Assembly (NCBI GenBank): GCA_963763775.1
Contig: CAVXPZ010000001.1
Span: 736,001 to 800,000, forward strand
Source of the DNA: an uncultured Chloroflexia bacterium
GTDB lineage: Bacteria; Chloroflexota; Limnocylindria; Limnocylindrales; CSP1-4
Direction: 5' to 3'
Length of the DNA: 64,000 nt
Shown: positions 49,892 to 57,535 of the stretch, one piece after another
How positions within the stretch are numbered: the stretch's first letter is position 1
Layout of the letters: every line of letters begins with the position of its first letter
Program-made: the position numbers and the translations under genes
The notes under the pieces: generated by a model
Told to the model about the DNA's origin: nothing
What the model saw: the letters and a program-made list of their open reading frames with translations, nothing else
Databases searched by the model: none

Positions 49892-49966
49892 GATTCGTAC
49901 GAATCTCGCAGAACGTGCGCGGCGACGCGCGTTCGATTGACACGCTGCCACGCGCAACCCTATCCT
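49892..49966 (+). promoter_or_regulatory. Sigma70-type promoter of the pot operon with upstream palindromic operator
   Basis: TTGACA (49937)-N18-TATCCT (49961); perfect palindrome GATTCGTACGAATC at 49892-49905. Confidence 0.65.
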
Positions 49967-50002
49967 CGCGCCCATCCGACCCCCCTAGGAGTGCCTGCGA
50001 CC

Positions 50003-52423
50003 GTGCCCACCGTGGACGTCCGGCTCGTCGACGTGGTCAAGAAGTACGGCGAGAACTATGCCGTCGACCACATCAACCTCGAAGTCCAGACGGGGGAGTT
50101 CTTCAGCCTCCTCGGACCGTCCGGCTGCGGCAAGACCACCACCCTGCGGATGATCGGCGGGTTCGAGGCGCCCACCTCCGGCCTGATCGAGCTCAAGGGC
50201 GAGGACGTCACGTGGCTGCCGCCGTACAAGCGCCACGTCAACACCGTCTTCCAGAACTACGCGCTGTTCCCGCACCTGACCGTGTACGAGAACGTGGCCT
50301 TCGGCCTTCGGCGCTCCAAGGTGCCCGATGCCGACGTCAAGTCGCGCGTCACCGAGATGCTCAAGCTCGTCGAGCTCCCCGGGTTCGAGGGTCGCAAGCC
50401 GACGCAGATCTCCGGTGGGCAGGCGCAGCGCGTCGCCCTGGCGCGGGCGCTCATCAACCGGCCGTCGGTCCTGCTCCTTGACGAACCGCTCGGTGCCCTC
50501 GACCTCAAGCTGCGCAAGCAGATGCAGGTCGAGCTCAAGCGCATCCAGCAGGAAGTGGGGATCACGTTCATCTTCGTGACCCACGACCAGGAAGAAGCGA
50601 TGACGATGTCGGATCGCATCGCGGTGATGAACCACGGCAAGTACGAGCAGCTGGCCGATCCCGCCAGCCTGTACGAGCGGCCGCGGACGCGGTTCGTCGC
50701 CGGGTTCCTGGGCGTGAGCAACCTCCTGCCGACGACGTCCCAGGGCACCGACGGTGCGTATTCGGTGGCGAGCCTGGCGGACGGGTCGACGATCCGCGTC
50801 CCGACCACGCTCACCGAGGGCTTCGACCAGTACGAGATCGGCGTCCGCCCCGAGAAGATCCGCCTGCGCGAGCTGACCGACGCCGTGCCAGACGGCCAGA
50901 ACCAGATGACCGGCACCGTCGTCGACGCCTCGTACCTCGGCGTCTCGACGAGCTACATCGTCGAGACCAAGGCCGGTGGCCGCGTCACGGTCTACGAGCA
51001 GAACGTCGAGCGCGCCACGCGCGCCGAGCTGTGGACCCCGGGCGAGGATGTCCGTCTCACCTGGTCGCCCGACCACACCTTCGCCGTCCAGGCGGGCGGC
51101 ACGCCGCCGCCACAGGACCCGGGGATCCCCCTCGTCGCGGGTGACGACGGCGGCGTCCCGGTGCCGCCACCCGCCCCCGGCGTCTCGCGGCGCAAGTTCC
51201 TCATCGGCGGCGCCATCGCGGTCGCGGCCGTCGGGCTCGGCGCCTTCCTCGCCTCCACGTCGGGCGGCGGCGCGCCCGCGGCATCCGAGAGTGCGGCCGC
51301 CGGCGCCTCCTCGGCGCCGCCGGAACCGTCGGTCCCGGCCTCGGCCGGCGCCTCGGCCATCGCGTCCGAGGTCCCGCCCCCGAACCCGACCGGCCCGCTC
51401 CAGTGGGCGAACTGGATCGGCTATATCGACATCGACGAGGCCACCGGCACACACCCGACGATCGAGAAGTTCACCAAGGAGACGGGGATCCAGGTCAACT
51501 ACGTCGAGTCGATCGACGGCAACGAGGAGTTCTTCACCAGCAACCTCAAGGACCCGCTCCAGGCGGGGCTGCCGACGGCCTGGGACCTCATCGTCATGAC
51601 CGACTGGATGATCGACCGGTTGGTGCGGCTCGGCTGGCTCGAGGCGCTCGACCGCGACGCCATGCCGAACTTCGTCGCGAACCTCCTGCCGCTCTACGTC
51701 GGCCGCTCGTTCGACCCGGACACGCATTTCGCGGCGCCGTGGCAGTCCGGGATGACCGGGCTGGGGTTCAACCTCAAGAAGACCGGGCCGCAGGACTCGC
51801 TCGAAGTGCTCTTCTCCGACCAGTTCGCAAAGAAGCTCACGTATCTCACGGAGATGCGCGACACGGTCGGCCTGTCGGCCCTCCGCCTCGGCGTCGACCC
51901 CGCGACGATCACCGCCGACCAGTTCGCGGCGGCTCTCGCCGAGGTCGACAAGGCCGTCAAGGCCGGGTACGTCCGACAGGTCGAGGGCAACTCCTACGTC
52001 AACACCATGGCGTCGGGTGATGCGGTCATGGCCATGGCCTGGTCTGGCGACGTCCTGACCCTGCTCGTCCCGGACCAGACGAAGGACCAGGACTTCCAAT
52101 GGGTGCTCGCCAAGGAAGGCGGGATGCTCTGGACCGACAACATGGCCGTGCCGAAGGGCTCGCCGAACAAGGTCCTCGCCCAGAAGTGGATCGACTTCTA
52201 CTACGACCCGATCAATGCGGCGACGATCGAGGCGTACGTCAACTACGTGTGCCCGGTCAAGGGCGCCCGCGACGTGATGCTGACGATCGACCCTGACCTG
52301 GCGAACAACCCGCTCATCTTCCCGCCGCCCGACTACGTCGCCCGGCTCCACCAGTTCCGCTCGACCACGGCCGAGGAAGAGCAGGCGTGGAGCGAGGCGT
52401 TCACGAAGGTCATGGGGCTCTAG
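50003..52423 (+). CDS. Fused polyamine ABC ATPase (PotA) - TM segment - substrate-binding protein (PotD)
   Basis: GPSGCGKT, ISGGQ, LLDEP, VTHDQ, TOBE-like region; SRRKFL plus hydrophobic stretch; WANWIGYID, PWQSGMTG, AWSG, WTDNM, NNPLIFP. Confidence 0.85.
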   Translation: MPTVDVRLVDVVKKYGENYAVDHINLEVQTGEFFSLLGPSGCGKTTTLRMIGGFEAPTSGLIELKGEDVTWLPPYKRHVNTVFQNYALFPHLTVYENVAFGLRRSKVPDADVKSRVTEMLKLVELPGFEGRKPTQISGGQAQRVALARALINRPSVLLLDEPLGALDLKLRKQMQVELKRIQQEVGITFIFVTHDQEEAMTMSDRIAVMNHGKYEQLADPASLYERPRTRFVAGFLGVSNLLPTTSQGTDGAYSVASLADGSTIRVPTTLTEGFDQYEIGVRPEKIRLRELTDAVPDGQNQMTGTVVDASYLGVSTSYIVETKAGGRVTVYEQNVERATRAELWTPGEDVRLTWSPDHTFAVQAGGTPPPQDPGIPLVAGDDGGVPVPPPAPGVSRRKFLIGGAIAVAAVGLGAFLASTSGGGAPAASESAAAGASSAPPEPSVPASAGASAIASEVPPPNPTGPLQWANWIGYIDIDEATGTHPTIEKFTKETGIQVNYVESIDGNEEFFTSNLKDPLQAGLPTAWDLIVMTDWMIDRLVRLGWLEALDRDAMPNFVANLLPLYVGRSFDPDTHFAAPWQSGMTGLGFNLKKTGPQDSLEVLFSDQFAKKLTYLTEMRDTVGLSALRLGVDPATITADQFAAALAEVDKAVKAGYVRQVEGNSYVNTMASGDAVMAMAWSGDVLTLLVPDQTKDQDFQWVLAKEGGMLWTDNMAVPKGSPNKVLAQKWIDFYYDPINAATIEAYVNYVCPVKGARDVMLTIDPDLANNPLIFPPPDYVARLHQFRSTTAEEEQAWSEAFTKVMGL

Positions 52424-52428
52424 CCACC

Positions 52429-53424
52429 ATGCGACGCGCGGTGAGCTTCCGCACCATCGCCCCATATGCCCTGCTGCTGCCGGGCCTCCTCTGGCTCGCG
52501 ATCTTCTTCGTCTACCCGGCCATCCAGATGTTCCTCGTGTCGCTGTGGACCGGGTCCATCTCGACCGGGTTCACGCAGACGTGGAACTGGGGCATCTACC
52601 CGGAGGCGTTCTCCGAGTACTGGCCCTGGATCGGCCGCTCCATCGTGTATGGCGGCCTCGCCACGATCCTGGCGTTCTCGCTGGGCTTCCCGCTCGCGTA
52701 CGCGATCGCGTTCCGCGGCGGCGCCTACAAGAACCTGCTGCTGTTCATGGTCATCGCGCCGTTCTTCACGAGCTTCCTGCTGCGGACGATCTCCTGGAAG
52801 ATCATCCTCTCGGACGACGGGATCTTCCTCGGACCGCTCAAGACGATCGGGATCATCCCGGCCGACTTCCAGCTGCTCGCGACGCCAGCGGCCGTGATCG
52901 CCGGGATCACGTACAACTTCCTGCCGTTCATGACGCTGCCGCTGTACGTCGCCCTCGAGAAGATCGACCGGCGGCTGCTGGAGGCGGCGTCCGACCTGTA
53001 CGCCGGGCCGTGGCGCCCGCGCGGCACCATCGTCGGGGCCATCGTCGGCGGCGTCCTCGGCGCCATCGTCGGCATCGTCATGGACTACGGCCCGCTCTCG
53101 CTCGGCATCCCCGGGCTGATCCTCGGCATGCTCGTCGGGACGTTCCTGATCAGCGAGGCCTTCATCCGGGTCACGCTCCCGCTCGCCTTGCCTGGCATCT
53201 TCGCCGGCTCGCTGCTGGTGTTCATCCCGGCGGTCGGCGACTACATCAACGCGGAGCTGCTCGGCAACCCGCAGTCCCTGATGATCGGCAACGTCATCCA
53301 GGCGCGGTACCTCAAGGTGACGGACTATCCGACCGCGTCGGCGCTGTCGTTCATCCTCATGGCCGCGATCCTCGTCGGCGTCCTCATCTACACCCGACTC
53401 CTCGGGACCGAGGAGCTGGTCTGA
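52429..53424 (+). CDS. potB: Polyamine ABC permease PotB with hydrophobic insertion in the EAA loop
   Basis: GFPLAY, PFFTSFLLR, YNFLPFM.LPLY, EAASDL...RVTLPL, FIPAVGDY, MIGN. Confidence 0.9.
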   Translation: MRRAVSFRTIAPYALLLPGLLWLAIFFVYPAIQMFLVSLWTGSISTGFTQTWNWGIYPEAFSEYWPWIGRSIVYGGLATILAFSLGFPLAYAIAFRGGAYKNLLLFMVIAPFFTSFLLRTISWKIILSDDGIFLGPLKTIGIIPADFQLLATPAAVIAGITYNFLPFMTLPLYVALEKIDRRLLEAASDLYAGPWRPRGTIVGAIVGGVLGAIVGIVMDYGPLSLGIPGLILGMLVGTFLISEAFIRVTLPLALPGIFAGSLLVFIPAVGDYINAELLGNPQSLMIGNVIQARYLKVTDYPTASALSFILMAAILVGVLIYTRLLGTEELV

Positions 53425-54314
53425 TGGCTGTCGCGACCGTGGCCTCCACCCGTCCCGCGTCCCTTGGCGACCGGCTCCACCGGGCTGCCGATCGGTGGCT
53501 CCTGCCGATCTACGTCGTGGGCGTGACCCTGTACCTGATCCTGCCGGTCCTCGTGATGATCGCGTTCAGCTTCAACGACCCGGCCGGCCGGTCCAACCTC
53601 CAGTGGCGTGGCTTCTCGCTCGACGCCTGGATGAACCCGCTCGGGCGCCCGGGCCTCCCCGAGGCGGTCCGGAACAGCCTCCTCATCGCCTTCCTGTCGA
53701 CGATCGTCGCGACGATGCTCGGGACGCTGATCGCGCTGGCGCTCGTCCGGTACTCCTTCCGGGGCCGATCCGGGACGAACCTGCTGATCTTCCTCCCGAT
53801 GTCGACGCCGGAGATCGTGCTCGGAGCCTCGCTCCTGACGACGTTCGTGGCGTCGGTCAAGCTGCCGTTCATCCCCCAGGGGATCGTCTATCCGCTCAGC
53901 ATCACCACGATCGTCATCGCCCACATCATGTTCTGCATCAGCTTCGTGGTCGTCACCGTGAAGGCCCGGTTGCAGGGGTTCCCGAGGCACCTCGAGGAGG
54001 CGGCCATGGACCTCGGCGCCAACGAATGGACGACCTTCTGGAAGGTGACGTTCCCGCTCATCCTCCCGGGCATCGCGGCCGCGGGGCTGCTCGCGTTCAG
54101 CCTGTCGATCGACGACTACGTGGTGACGAGCTTCACGGCCGGCCAGACCCAGACCTTCCCGCTCTTCATCTACGGTTCCCAGCTGCGCGGCATCCCCGTC
54201 CAGGTGAATGTCATCGGCACCATCATCTTCGTGGTGGCGGTCATGTTCGTCCTCATGACGACGCTCTGGCAGCGTCGGGTGGCCGCGAGGGAGTACAACA
54301 GCGGCATCGTCTGA
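53424..54314 (+). CDS. potC: Polyamine ABC permease PotC
   Basis: FSFN, NSL.IA, PEIV.G, AH, EEAAMDLGA, FWKVTFP, SIDD. Confidence 0.9.
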   Translation: MAVATVASTRPASLGDRLHRAADRWLLPIYVVGVTLYLILPVLVMIAFSFNDPAGRSNLQWRGFSLDAWMNPLGRPGLPEAVRNSLLIAFLSTIVATMLGTLIALALVRYSFRGRSGTNLLIFLPMSTPEIVLGASLLTTFVASVKLPFIPQGIVYPLSITTIVIAHIMFCISFVVVTVKARLQGFPRHLEEAAMDLGANEWTTFWKVTFPLILPGIAAAGLLAFSLSIDDYVVTSFTAGQTQTFPLFIYGSQLRGIPVQVNVIGTIIFVVAVMFVLMTTLWQRRVAAREYNSGIV

Positions 54315-54342: not shown

Positions 54343-55671
54343 ATGGTCGACACCGCCGACGCACCCGCTCGCGCCGCCGGGGCTCCCCTCCCCGACCACG
54401 CCGTGGTCCCGCCCGTCTGGGGCCGCATCACCAACCTCGACGTCGATCGCGGCGAGGGATCCTGGCTGATCACCCGCGACGGGGATCGCTACCTCGACTA
54501 TTCGTCGGGGATCGGGGTCACGAACACGGGCCACGCCCACCCACGGGTGGCGGCCGCCGTCGCGGCACAGGCGACGAAGCTGCTCCACGGGCAGCAGAAC
54601 ATCCTCTACCACGAGCCCGGGTTGCGGCTCTACGACCGGTTGCGGCACGTGCTGCCCGGCGGGCCGTGGCAGGCGTTCCTGTCGAACTCGGGCGCGGAGG
54701 CGGTCGAGGCGTCGGTGAAGCTGGCCCGCGCCGCCACGGGCCGCCCGGCGATCATGGCGTTCCGTTACGGCTATCACGGCCGGACCGCCCAGACGATGGC
54801 CCTGACGACCGCGAAGGACGTCTACCGGGCGGCTTTCGAGCCGCTGCCGGGGTCCGTGTACCACACGCCCTACCCGTACTGCTACCGGGCCGCGGGCGGT
54901 CCCCATCCGATCGACGCGTGTACCTGCGATTGGGAGGAGCAGCTCGACCTGACGTTCCACCAGTTCATCTACCCGGACCGCGTGGCGGCGATCATCATCG
55001 AGCCCGTCCTGGGCGAAGGCGGGTATCTCGTCCCGCCGACCGGGTTCCTGCCGCGGCTCCGCGAGATCACCCGCGAGCACGGGATCCTGCTGATCGCCGA
55101 CGAGGTCCAGACGGGCTTCGGCCGGACCGGCGAGATGTTCGCCGTCCAGCATTGGGGCGTCGAGCCCGACATCCTCGTGATGGCCAAGGGCATCGCGTCG
55201 GGCCTCCCGCTGTCGGGCATCCTCGCGCGCCAGGACCTCATGGCCGCCTGGAAACCCGGGACGCACGGCGGCACGTACGGCGGCAATGTGGTGTCATGCG
55301 CGGCCGCGAACGCGACCCTCGACGTCATCGAGGACGAGGGACTCGTGGCCAATGCGCGGGAGCGTGGCCGCCAGTTCCTCGACGGTCTCAGGACCCTGGC
55401 CGGCAAGTACGGGTCGATCGGCGACGTGCGCGGCCTCGGGCTGATGGTCGCGATCGAGCTGGTCAAGCCGGGGATCGGCGACGGCCGCACGCCGGACCCG
55501 GACCTCACGAAACGGATCCAGGCCGAGGCCCTCGCCCGCAAGCTGATCGTGCTGACCGCCGGCACCTACGTGAACGTGGTCCGGATCATCCCGCCCCTGG
55601 TCACGACGGCCGCCGAGGTCGACCAGGCGCTCGGCATCCTCGACGAGGCGCTGGCCGCCGCCGGGGCGTGA
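54343..55671 (+). CDS. Class III PLP aminotransferase (GabT/putrescine aminotransferase-like)
   Basis: NSGAEAVE, YHGRT, EPVLGEGG, DEVQTGFGRTG, MAKGIASG, GTYGGN. Confidence 0.9.
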   Translation: MVDTADAPARAAGAPLPDHAVVPPVWGRITNLDVDRGEGSWLITRDGDRYLDYSSGIGVTNTGHAHPRVAAAVAAQATKLLHGQQNILYHEPGLRLYDRLRHVLPGGPWQAFLSNSGAEAVEASVKLARAATGRPAIMAFRYGYHGRTAQTMALTTAKDVYRAAFEPLPGSVYHTPYPYCYRAAGGPHPIDACTCDWEEQLDLTFHQFIYPDRVAAIIIEPVLGEGGYLVPPTGFLPRLREITREHGILLIADEVQTGFGRTGEMFAVQHWGVEPDILVMAKGIASGLPLSGILARQDLMAAWKPGTHGGTYGGNVVSCAAANATLDVIEDEGLVANARERGRQFLDGLRTLAGKYGSIGDVRGLGLMVAIELVKPGIGDGRTPDPDLTKRIQAEALARKLIVLTAGTYVNVVRIIPPLVTTAAEVDQALGILDEALAAAGA

Positions 55672-56267
55672 CCGTCGTCGTCCTTCCTGCGACGCCCGAG
55701 CGGTGGGACGACGTCGCGGCCGTGTTCGCCGGCGACGGGCCCAAGGGCTGCTGGTGCCACGTCTGGCGCACGCTCAGCCCCATCCCGCCAGCGCAGGGTG
55801 ACGGCTCCGGCGAGCGGAACCTGCGGACCCAGGTCGAGACGGACCCGACGCCGCCCGGTCTGCTCGCCTACGACGATGGCGTCCCGTCAGGCTGGATCCG
55901 GCTCGGACCGCGTGACGGCATCGGGCGGCTCGTCCGGTCGAGGACGATCCCGCGGATCGACGACGTGCCCGTCTGGTCGATCGTGTGCTTCAAGGTCCTG
56001 CCCGGCCATCGCCGCAAGGGCGTCGCGCGGGCGCTGCTGGCTGGGGCCGTGGACTTCGCGAGCGGTTCGGGGGCCCCGGCGCTCGAGGCCTACCCCATCG
56101 ACGCGGGGGGCCGGCGCCTCGACGTGTCGTTCTCGTTCGTCGGCTTCACCTCGATGTTCGAGGCGGCCGGGTTCCGAAGGGTGGCCGAGACGAACGCCCA
56201 TAGCGCCGGGCGGCCGCGGATCCTCATGCGCCTCGACCTGACCGAGGCGGCCGTCACGGCCGGCTAG
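55668..56267 (+). CDS. GNAT family N-acetyltransferase
   Basis: GCWC, WSIVCF.V...HRRKGVARALL, LEAYP, F..AGF. Confidence 0.85.
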   Translation: MTVVVLPATPERWDDVAAVFAGDGPKGCWCHVWRTLSPIPPAQGDGSGERNLRTQVETDPTPPGLLAYDDGVPSGWIRLGPRDGIGRLVRSRTIPRIDDVPVWSIVCFKVLPGHRRKGVARALLAGAVDFASGSGAPALEAYPIDAGGRRLDVSFSFVGFTSMFEAAGFRRVAETNAHSAGRPRILMRLDLTEAAVTAG

Positions 56268-57535
56268 ACCAGCCCGACCTCGCGAGCCTCGCGGGTCAAG
56301 GCGTCGCGGTGGTCCGGGTGCGCGATCCCGATGAGGGAGGCGGCCCGCTCGCGCAGGGACCGGCCGAAGAGCTCGGCGACGCCATACTCGGTGACGATCG
56401 TCCGGGCATGGGCACGGGTGGTCACGACGCCGGCGCCCTCCTTGAGCGTGGCCACGATCCGGGACATCGATCCGCCGGCGGCGGTCGACGGCAGGGCGAT
56501 GATCGCGCGGCCCTCCGAAGCCAGCGCGGCGCCACGGATGAAGTCCATCTGGCCGCCGACACCGCTGTACACATGCGATCCGATGGAGTCGGCGACGACC
56601 TGGCCGGTCAGGTCGACCTCGATGGCGGAGTTGATCGCCGTCATCCGGCTGAACGAGCGGATGACGTGCGTGTCGTTCGTGAAATCGACCGAGCGCATCT
56701 CGATCATCGGGTTGTCGTGGACGAACCGGTACAGCCGGTCGCTGCCCATCATGAACGCCGTCACGATCTTCCCGCGGTTGCGCTCCTTGCGCGCTCCCGT
56801 GATGACGCCCGCCTCCACGAGGTCGACCACGCTGTCGGTGAACATCTCGGTGTGGACACCGAGGTCGCGGTGGTCGCGAAGCGCCAGGGCCGTCGCGGCC
56901 GGGATGGCCCCGATCCCCAGCTGGATCGTGGCGCCGTCCGGCACGAGCTCGGCGACGTACTGGCCGATCCGGCGCTCGATGTCGCCGATCGGGCCGACCG
57001 GCCGGGCGTACGGGGGGATGTCGACTTCGATCGCGAGGTCGATGTCGTCGACGTGGATGAAGCTCTCGCCGAGCGTGCGCGGGAGCGCGGGGTTGAGCTG
57101 GGCGATGACGGTCGTCGCCGCGCGGATCGCCGCATGCATCGCCTCCACCGAGACGTTCAGCGAGCAGAAGCCGTGGGCGTCCGGCGGGGTCACGTTCACG
57201 AGGACGGCATCGAGCGGGACCGCCCCGGATTCGAACAGCCGCGGCACGTCCGAGAGGAAGACCGGGACATAGTCCGCACGGCCCTCGCGGATCGCCGCCC
57301 GGGCGTTCGGCCCCACGAACAGGGCCCGGTGCCGGAAGTGCCCGGCCATCTCCGGCGCGAGGTGCGGGCCCGGACCTTCCGTGTGCAGGTGGACCATCCC
57401 CACGTCGCGCAACTCTGGCGCGCGCGCCACGAGCGCGTCGAGCAGGACGCTCGGCGCCGCGGCCGCGCATTGGACATAGACCTGGTCGCCGGAACGGATC
57501 CCGGCGACGGCCTCGTCAGGGGCGACGATTCGCAT
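56264..57535 (-). CDS. Acetyl-CoA hydrolase/transferase family (4-hydroxybutyrate CoA-transferase-like)
   Basis: QLGIGAIP, LGVHTEMF (catalytic Glu), NSAIEVDLTGQ, SGVGGQMDF, VTEYGVA. Confidence 0.9.
   Translation of the reverse strand: MRIVAPDEAVAGIRSGDQVYVQCAAAAPSVLLDALVARAPELRDVGMVHLHTEGPGPHLAPEMAGHFRHRALFVGPNARAAIREGRADYVPVFLSDVPRLFESGAVPLDAVLVNVTPPDAHGFCSLNVSVEAMHAAIRAATTVIAQLNPALPRTLGESFIHVDDIDLAIEVDIPPYARPVGPIGDIERRIGQYVAELVPDGATIQLGIGAIPAATALALRDHRDLGVHTEMFTDSVVDLVEAGVITGARKERNRGKIVTAFMMGSDRLYRFVHDNPMIEMRSVDFTNDTHVIRSFSRMTAINSAIEVDLTGQVVADSIGSHVYSGVGGQMDFIRGAALASEGRAIIALPSTAAGGSMSRIVATLKEGAGVVTTRAHARTIVTEYGVAELFGRSLRERAASLIGIAHPDHRDALTREAREVGLV

Follow-up and report, generated by a model that had tools for sequence, protein, structure and literature searches.

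The 64,000-nucleotide window analysed here (contig CAVXPZ010000001.1 of an uncultured Chloroflexia bacterium, positions 736,001 to 800,000) encodes a PotABCD-like ATP-binding cassette (ABC) importer, whose first permease, PotB, carries 47 additional amino acids (aa) inside its EAA loop. This loop is the signature of type I importer permeases and the place where ATP hydrolysis is relayed to the membrane domain, and its length is treated as fixed. Four successive open reading frames (ORFs) on one strand make up the locus, namely a fused potA-potD, potB, potC and an aminotransferase gene, and the order potA-potD-potB-potC was found in all 27 loci that were fetched from related genomes. The features on which the analysis centres are listed by window position, with helices taken from an AlphaFold2 (AF2) model and Kyte–Doolittle hydropathy averaged over 19 residues (KD19).

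49937..52423 (+): fused potA-potD ORF, 828 aa; ABC ATPase, TOBE domain, linker with one membrane helix, then solute-binding domain
52429..53424 (+): potB, PotB/PotH-like permease, 331 aa
52969..52998 (+): EAA helix 1 or coupling helix, RRLLEAASDL, residues 181-190; helix in the AF2 model, pairing with the EAARDL segment of E. coli PotB
53014..53154 (+): 47-aa insert, residues R196-S242, in frame; placed from the reading frame, insertless orthologues and the E. coli PotB alignment
53020..53079 (+): predicted insert helix a (AF2), R198-V217; Gly at 199, 203, 207, 211 and 215; mean KD19 2.40
53080..53091 (+): turn MDYG (AF2), residues 218-221, predicted to face outside; 8-14 polar residues in other lineages
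53092..53148 (+): predicted insert helix b (AF2), P222-L240; Gly at 226, 229, 233 and 237; KD19 up to 2.13 at residues 223-241
53155..53184 (+): EAA helix 2, EAFIRVTLPL, residues 243-252; helix in the AF2 model, leading into the next core transmembrane helix and aligning to E. coli PotB from residue 193
53424..54314 (+): potC, with an uninterrupted, ordinary EAA loop; matched in one stretch by the NCBIfam PotC profile NF007047

The PotB frame (52429-53424) reads RRLLEAASDL-YAGPW-[RPRGTIVGAIVGGVLGAIVGIVMDYGPLSLGIPGLILGMLVGTFLIS]-EAFIRVTLPL in this region, the bracketed segment being the 47-aa insert, which sits between the coupling helix and the second EAA-loop helix. The canonical EAA motif has the spacing EAA-x3-G-x9-I-x-LP; both halves of it were present in PotB, 47 residues apart. 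The uninterrupted spacing was seen in PotC of the same operon, whose loop is ordinary (EEAAMDLGANEWTTFWKVTFPLILP), and in insertless orthologues with the same gene order, which keep the form EAA-x3-Y-x9-V-x-LP (for example EAADDLYANRAAAFRRVTLPL at locus L047). When PotB was aligned with E. coli PotB (8y5f_B/8y5i_B) using phmmer, query residue 193 fell on chain residue 190 and query residue 243 on chain residue 193, so that 49 residues stood against two. The NCBIfam PotB profile likewise matched in two separate stretches, of which the better aligned residues 35-214 of the protein (numbered in a 345-aa ORF) to profile positions 17-197. A sequence-only reading of the window had proposed an in-frame insert of 47 aa at 53014-53154 that splits the EAA motif, beside a normal PotC loop, and had suggested alignment with PotB homologues as a check. 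Its coordinates proved exact to the base, and the PotC loop and both sets of homologues agreed with it.

The same reading had called the insertion clean rather than an indel artefact, and this was borne out by codon usage, selection and database relatives. GC content at third codon positions was 1.00 in the insert and 0.97 in the rest of potB. The ratio of non-synonymous to synonymous substitution rates (dN/dS) stayed below 1 in each of the 15 pairs formed by six close relatives, at 0.19-0.74 for the insert and 0.08-0.23 for the rest of potB. The 120 database clusters listed were full-length relatives (325-335 aa, 80-97% identity, 98-100% query coverage). An assembly, frameshift or indel artefact was ruled out by conservation across hundreds of independent assemblies together with the codon-level constraint. 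An intein or other removed element was also considered and rejected, given that searches showed no domain of this kind, that the segment is hydrophobic and that its length is only 47 aa.

The AF2 model of PotB, built from a 46-row alignment, had a mean predicted local distance difference test (pLDDT) score of 89.0 and a predicted template modelling score of 0.84, with pLDDT blocks of 87-93 in the insert. The same architecture was predicted for a 39%-identical homologue from Rhizobium sp. Root1212 (first of 39 rows), with helices at 193-216 and 224-243, an overall pLDDT of 87.8 and pLDDT blocks of 89-97. A Foldseek search with the window PotB model returned 8y5f_B and 8y5i_B as top matches (8y5f_B: E 1e-12, target TM-score 0.86). 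Over 66 non-identical insert-bearing sequences, the best 19-residue windows had median hydropathies of 2.17 (helix a) and 2.08 (helix b). Both insert helices are thus as hydrophobic as the core transmembrane helices of the window PotB, which ranged from 1.59 to 2.44. Gly and Ala made up 22.2% and 17.9% of the insert, compared with 8.6% and 9.6% of the remaining protein, and hydropathy and composition thus agree with the earlier description of the insert as hydrophobic and GxxxG-rich. An Arg-containing sequence (WRPRG) forms its N-terminal flank, and all lineages have a polar or acidic turn, which is consistent with an in-out-in hairpin that leaves the remaining topology unchanged. The sequence-only reading had left a choice between two extra transmembrane helices and a re-entrant loop; from the two AF2 models, the hydropathy, the Arg flank and the polar turn, two membrane helices are the better reading. 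PotB is accordingly predicted to be an eight-helix permease instead of one with six, both the helicity and the membrane character of the insert being model-based predictions.

Domain searches with the insert alone gave only glycine-zipper matches in Pfam, all of them below threshold (PF13488 Gly-zipper_Omp, 22.2 bits against a gathering cut-off of 25; PF13441, 20.8 against 28.9; PF05433, 17.1 against 24.2). Like these domains the insert has Gly at i, i+4 in hydrophobic helices, but given the sub-threshold scores the resemblance probably lies in composition, and we claim no homology. Residues 170-265 of PotB, searched in the ESM Atlas, matched generic BPD_transp_1 clusters only, with scores under 0.9.

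Several Gly residues of the insert were retained across three phyla. Among the 66 insert-bearing sequences, G199 and G203 were present in 66 and G207 in 65, and in helix b G233 was kept in 59, G229 in 48 and G237 in 44. The conserved Gly lie on the cytoplasmic halves of both insert helices at a spacing of i, i+4, and these GxxxGxxxG faces suggest that the hairpin is tightly packed at its base. The flanks G-[PR]-[WC]-[RG]-x-x-G and [ST]-[EQ]-x-F were common to all lineages. The length of the turn varied from four to about 14 residues.

The distribution of the insert was followed at three depths. Among 41 related genomes (the window's own and 40 relatives), the PotB match ran through the insert in 15, was an orthologue-level match interrupted at residues 193-196/243-244 in 24, and was weaker in the remaining two (G013 and G023). 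The 27 loci fetched from this set comprised 15 with an insert of 47 or 56 aa and 12 without. When 401 genomes sampled across the phylum were searched at E <= 1e-8 with a query of 78 aa (which, being short, would miss divergent forms), the insert was confined to the window's own family, where seven of the 23 other genomes had it; no genome in the other 81 families did. Two representatives from a 50%-identity clustering, P0148 and P0189, were 37-40% identical to the window PotB and had the insert at the same position. With these two as queries, a search of one genome per GTDB species gave 227 relatives, of which the best 80 were kept; the insert was found in 57 of the 80 loci, a proportion that is not a frequency because the query favoured insert-bearing proteins.

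Of these 57 loci, 47 belonged to Chloroflexota, with inserts of 47, 56, 57 or 58 aa. Four were from Actinomycetota, with 53-54 aa: a Leucobacter metagenome-assembled genome (MAG), Leucobacter sp. wl10, an Intrasporangiaceae MAG and Streptomyces sp. NPDC058045. Five, all with 53 aa, were from Alphaproteobacteria (Rhizobium sp. Root1212, Pararhizobium sp. YC-54, a Rhodospirillaceae MAG, Shinella yambaruensis DSM 18801 and a plasmid of Ensifer sp. R-19), and the last was from a MAG labelled Eisenbacteria. In a plasmid collection, close relatives were found in three records only (two from Shinella, one from Ensifer canadensis), annotated as 'ABC transporter permease' or 'hypothetical protein'. The insert is therefore not private to the source genome and occurs in three phyla, in Limnocylindria-type Chloroflexota (47-58 aa), Actinomycetota and Alphaproteobacteria. 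The PotB of the MAG labelled Candidatus Eisenbacteria (L108), which has a 56-aa insert, was 58% identical to that of the window and nested among Limnocylindria-type sequences; either gene transfer or misbinning of the contig could account for this.

A tree of 128 non-identical PotB sequences was reconstructed with IQ-TREE (quick) after removal of the insert columns. All 66 insert-bearing sequences grouped with 35 insertless orthologues in a single starred clade (99) that excluded the 27 other insertless PotB-like proteins. The insertless orthologues within it (L045-L056, L116-L143) had the exact canonical EAA spacing (DLYA-x-R-W-x-AFRR). On the free tree the insert state required three changes, two of them forced by starred branches. 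The actinobacterial and alphaproteobacterial sequences, 11 in all, grouped together in one clade (100), whose long branch fell within the 56-aa forms, a placement that is unsure. Constraining the 66 insert-bearing sequences to one clade cost 18.19 log-likelihood units and was not rejected (approximately unbiased test, p 0.226). The unrejected constraint, the common flanks and the near-invariant Gly together point to a single origin of the insert, possibly followed by clean loss in sister lineages; if it arose once, it would have been cleanly removed at least twice later. A search of the source genome for a donor of the insert (53-aa query) had the locus itself as its sole match. The next best likeness (E 0.016, 49% identity over 41 aa) was weak and lay outside the window, at G000:C1:717764-717889, in a 182-aa frame that may encode a small Gly-rich membrane protein.

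Taken with the structural predictions, these results make it likely in our view that the window PotB belongs to an old PotB/PotH-like subfamily in which a Gly/Ala-rich membrane hairpin at the tip of the EAA loop anchors or buttresses the coupling helix, the functional part being held with less confidence. The hairpin (47 aa here, 47-58 in relatives) would be placed between the PotA-docking coupling helix and the short helix that precedes the next core transmembrane helix. Leaving the cytoplasmic face after WRPRG, it would cross the membrane, turn outside at MDYG and return, and the topology of the remaining protein would thereby be preserved. In the available part of the account of E. coli PotABC, the coupling helices are described as lying in a cleft of PotA, 'just beneath the inner membrane'; ATP binding brings their spacing from 29.5 to 17.6 A (PMC11414716). 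A hairpin rooted at the C-terminal end of a helix in that position would be able to span the bilayer and would have to move together with it. We infer from this that the two hairpin helices would be peripheral and lipid-facing, would pack by way of their glycine faces and would be fixed rigidly to the coupling helix. They would anchor or buttress that helix in the bilayer while moving with it in each ATP cycle. The hairpin would lie outside the substrate path.

Several points weigh against this interpretation. With a length of 19-20 residues and a start below the membrane plane, the helices could also make up a re-entrant hairpin that crosses only part of the bilayer, and helix b holds one Pro and four Gly. 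The site at which the hairpin packs, whether at the periphery or at an interface, is likewise a matter of inference. No correlated indels were found in PotA or PotC, except for a C-terminal PotC stretch that is possibly a trimming artefact, so these subunits give no hint of a packing partner. The insert has evolved two to three times faster than the core of the protein. With at least three state changes on the free tree, it has either been cleanly lost or been gained more than once, and if it was lost, the transporter works without it. Finally, the permease is, by its family scores, PotB-like and not a proven spermidine or putrescine PotB.

The near-invariance of three Gly (65-66 of 66 sequences, in three phyla) exceeds what a purely lipid-facing helix would need, and GxxxG motifs favour tight helix-helix packing according to the available text of PMC12470825. 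Both observations would suit a hairpin that serves as a regulatory or interaction module, its glycine-zipper faces binding a membrane partner or sensing the state of the bilayer and so modulating ATPase-permease coupling. The mechanical tie to a coupling helix that moves by about 12 A per cycle, as far as this is covered in the available part of PMC11414716, would suit it also. PotC, a second transporter, a lipid-anchored PotD or a small protein would be candidate partners. The Gly may, however, only pack the hairpin helices together or onto the core. The indel comparison offered nothing beyond the C-terminal PotC stretch, and two class-specific PotC residues came from a comparison in which phylogeny was ignored. 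Gene neighbourhoods varied from phylum to phylum, and no further small gene conserved in them was noticed; those in Ensifer and Leucobacter shared no functional hint (a LysR regulator, a metallo-beta-lactamase-fold protein and a phosphatase-family protein were present). On balance such a module, with any of these partners, is unlikely. The two PotC residues are 75 and 238, which with the insert were R (83%) and T (94%) and without it W and V (81% each), phylogeny being ignored.

A more specific proposal, which we put forward as a speculation of low probability, is that the hairpin acts as a membrane 'lever or brake'. Because the hairpin is rooted between the coupling helix and the next core transmembrane helix, the two glycine-zipper helices would be dragged through the bilayer each time ATP closes the ATPase dimer. 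This would make polyamine import sensitive to lipid state, to membrane potential or to a bound partner, which could be a lipid-anchored or PotA-tethered binding protein. If true, it would give type I ABC importers a kind of regulation that is not known for them.

The hairpin might instead be a tolerated passenger, an ancient in-frame insertion forming harmless peripheral helices with no function of their own. Its dN/dS of two to three times the core value, the turn that ranges from four to about 14 residues and the lack of a source sequence in the source genome would all be compatible with this, as would the three changes on the free tree and, given a single origin, clean loss in sister lineages that have canonical EAA spacing. 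Against it, the hairpin has been retained in three phyla at 37-40% identity, with near-invariant Gly and conserved flanks (GPW-R..G and S-E/Q-x-F), its dN/dS was below 1 in every pair compared, and an ill-fitting, unpaired hydrophobic hairpin in the docking loop would be expected to be costly. We regard a passenger role as quite unlikely, and anchoring or buttressing of the coupling helix is preferred over it.

The fused potA-potD gene adds a further membrane helix to the operon:

51185..51256 (+): fusion linker helix SRRKFLIGGAIAVAAVGLGAFLAS, residues 417-440 of the fusion; a former twin-arginine translocation (Tat) lipoprotein signal without the lipobox Cys

The Pfam domains of the fused ORF were ABC_tran (44-185), TOBE_2 (301-383) and SBP_bac_8 (509-794), and its PotA part passed the NCBIfam TIGR01187 potA cut-off (390.9 bits; cut-off 355.6). 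Unfused PotD proteins of the Limnocylindria type with a findable motif had a Tat motif and lipobox at their start (RRxF[LV]QG...FLAAC). Of the 12 fused loci without a lipobox (L031-L033, L043, L044, L047, L074, L092, L097 and L103-L105), 11 keep SRRxF, with FLAST, FLANT, FLANS, FLAAT, FLALT or FIAAT at the position of the Cys; the linker of L103 escaped the motif search. Because these linkers have lost the lipobox Cys, the fusion is taken, from its sequence, as a genuine evolved state, in which the binding domain would be tethered to the ATPase through one membrane helix. At one further locus (L100), potA and potD share one open frame yet the full Tat-lipobox signal is retained (RRRFLQG...FLAAC); this fusion is doubtful and represents either a recent read-through or an assembly error.

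The sequence-only reading had taken the insert and the fusion as joint signs of a remodelled transporter and had proposed that their co-occurrence be followed across genomes. Among 93 non-duplicate loci with a readable state, the insert was accompanied by a fusion in 13 (one doubtful) and by split genes in 45, and loci without the insert were fused in one (L047) and split in 34. An insert was thus present at 13 of 14 fused loci, and the genuine fusion does place a new membrane helix beside PotB. Nevertheless, 45 of 58 insert loci were unfused, including all eight readable loci of Actinomycetota and Alphaproteobacteria, and L047 combined a fusion with an insertless PotB. The fused PotA parts formed one clade on the PotA tree (13 sequences, support 100, FastTree), yet the fused state required six changes on the PotD tree and six on the PotB tree. 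The fused module therefore adjoins PotB proteins with a 47-aa insert, a 56-aa insert or none, which suggests, on these trees, that it has moved between operons. Only two phylogenetically independent contrasts in insert state were available, so no association can be claimed. The proposed link did not hold: the insert is common beside unfused potA and potD and is not an adaptation to the fusion. That the hairpin co-evolved with the fusion and packs against the linker helix is very unlikely, as the insert is far older than a fusion seen only within the Limnocylindria-type set.

The closest known system is E. coli PotB (8Y5F/8Y5I; PMC11414716), which shares with the window PotB its fold, the sequence on both sides of the insert, the PotA-docking coupling helix and the partners PotA, PotC and PotD. 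In the available part of that report, PotB and PotC of E. coli are each given six membrane helices (PMC11414716). The window PotB differs from its E. coli counterpart in the 49 residues that stand here against two, and the equivalog score of the window protein (171.8 against a cut-off of 348 bits) means that its substrate may differ. Insertless orthologues with the same gene order (L045-L056, L116-L143) are closer still, with 53-57% identity and a place in the same starred clade, but have no hairpin and show canonical spacing (e.g. DLYANRW-AAFRRVT). Enlargement of the six-helix core by insertions has parallels in MalF and other type I permeases with extra helices, as described in the available text of PMC3654945. 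The TCDB survey reports extra helices at the termini (N-terminus) or by duplication, and the part available makes no mention of an insertion in the EAA loop (PMC3654945). Its table for the polyamine/opine/phosphonate family gives six transmembrane segments for six of six members, as far as that text could be consulted (PMC3654945). In the literature searched, with partial coverage, no description of a membrane hairpin inside the EAA loop was found; the eight-helix PotB variant is thus undescribed there, the permease family itself being known. Tethered binding domains have precedents as well. In NCBIfam NF043073, a Mycoplasma permease/substrate-binding protein, the domain is fused to the permease, unlike here, where it is fused to the ATPase. 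Substrate-binding domains are fused to the permease also in GlnPQ and OpuA.

A conserved pair of membrane helices in the EAA loop, occurring in three phyla, means that a large addition embedded in the membrane can be tolerated, and is perhaps used, at this joint. Cultured strains with insert-bearing operons exist, including Rhizobium sp. Root1212, Leucobacter sp. wl10, Shinella yambaruensis DSM 18801 and a Streptomyces strain, so the question is directly testable.

The insert also affects annotation. It splits the Pfam domain, and scores therefore fall below cut-offs: PF00528 BPD_transp_1 scored 25.6 bits on PotB (cut-off 26.4), and the match was limited to post-insert residues 258-336 (of the 345-aa ORF). 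Many close database relatives do carry a precomputed PF00528 label, and some insert-bearing copies are labelled 'hypothetical protein'. PotB and PotH were the top-scoring NCBIfam families for PotB, and PotC and PotI for PotC. Neither equivalog cut-off was reached by PotB (NF007044, 171.8 bits; PotH, 159.4 bits against a cut-off of 489), and PotC scored 198.7 bits against NF007047, below its cut-off of 326. The system was accordingly named PotABCD-like. Its operon has the PotA-type ATPase, second permease (PotC) and SBP_bac_8 binding domain of PotB/PotH-type importers.

Downstream of potC the strand continues with one more gene:

54343-55671 (+): class-III aminotransferase gene, immediately downstream of potC

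Beyond it, an acetyl-CoA hydrolase/transferase family gene lies on the opposite strand (56264-57535, -). These two neighbours are consistent with an amine or polyamine catabolic neighbourhood. In several relatives assembled in few contigs (L038/L073, L043, L044, L033 in potC, L045 and L052), potA, potB, potC or potD was split into two or three frames, which looks like long-read indel error rather than pseudogene formation.

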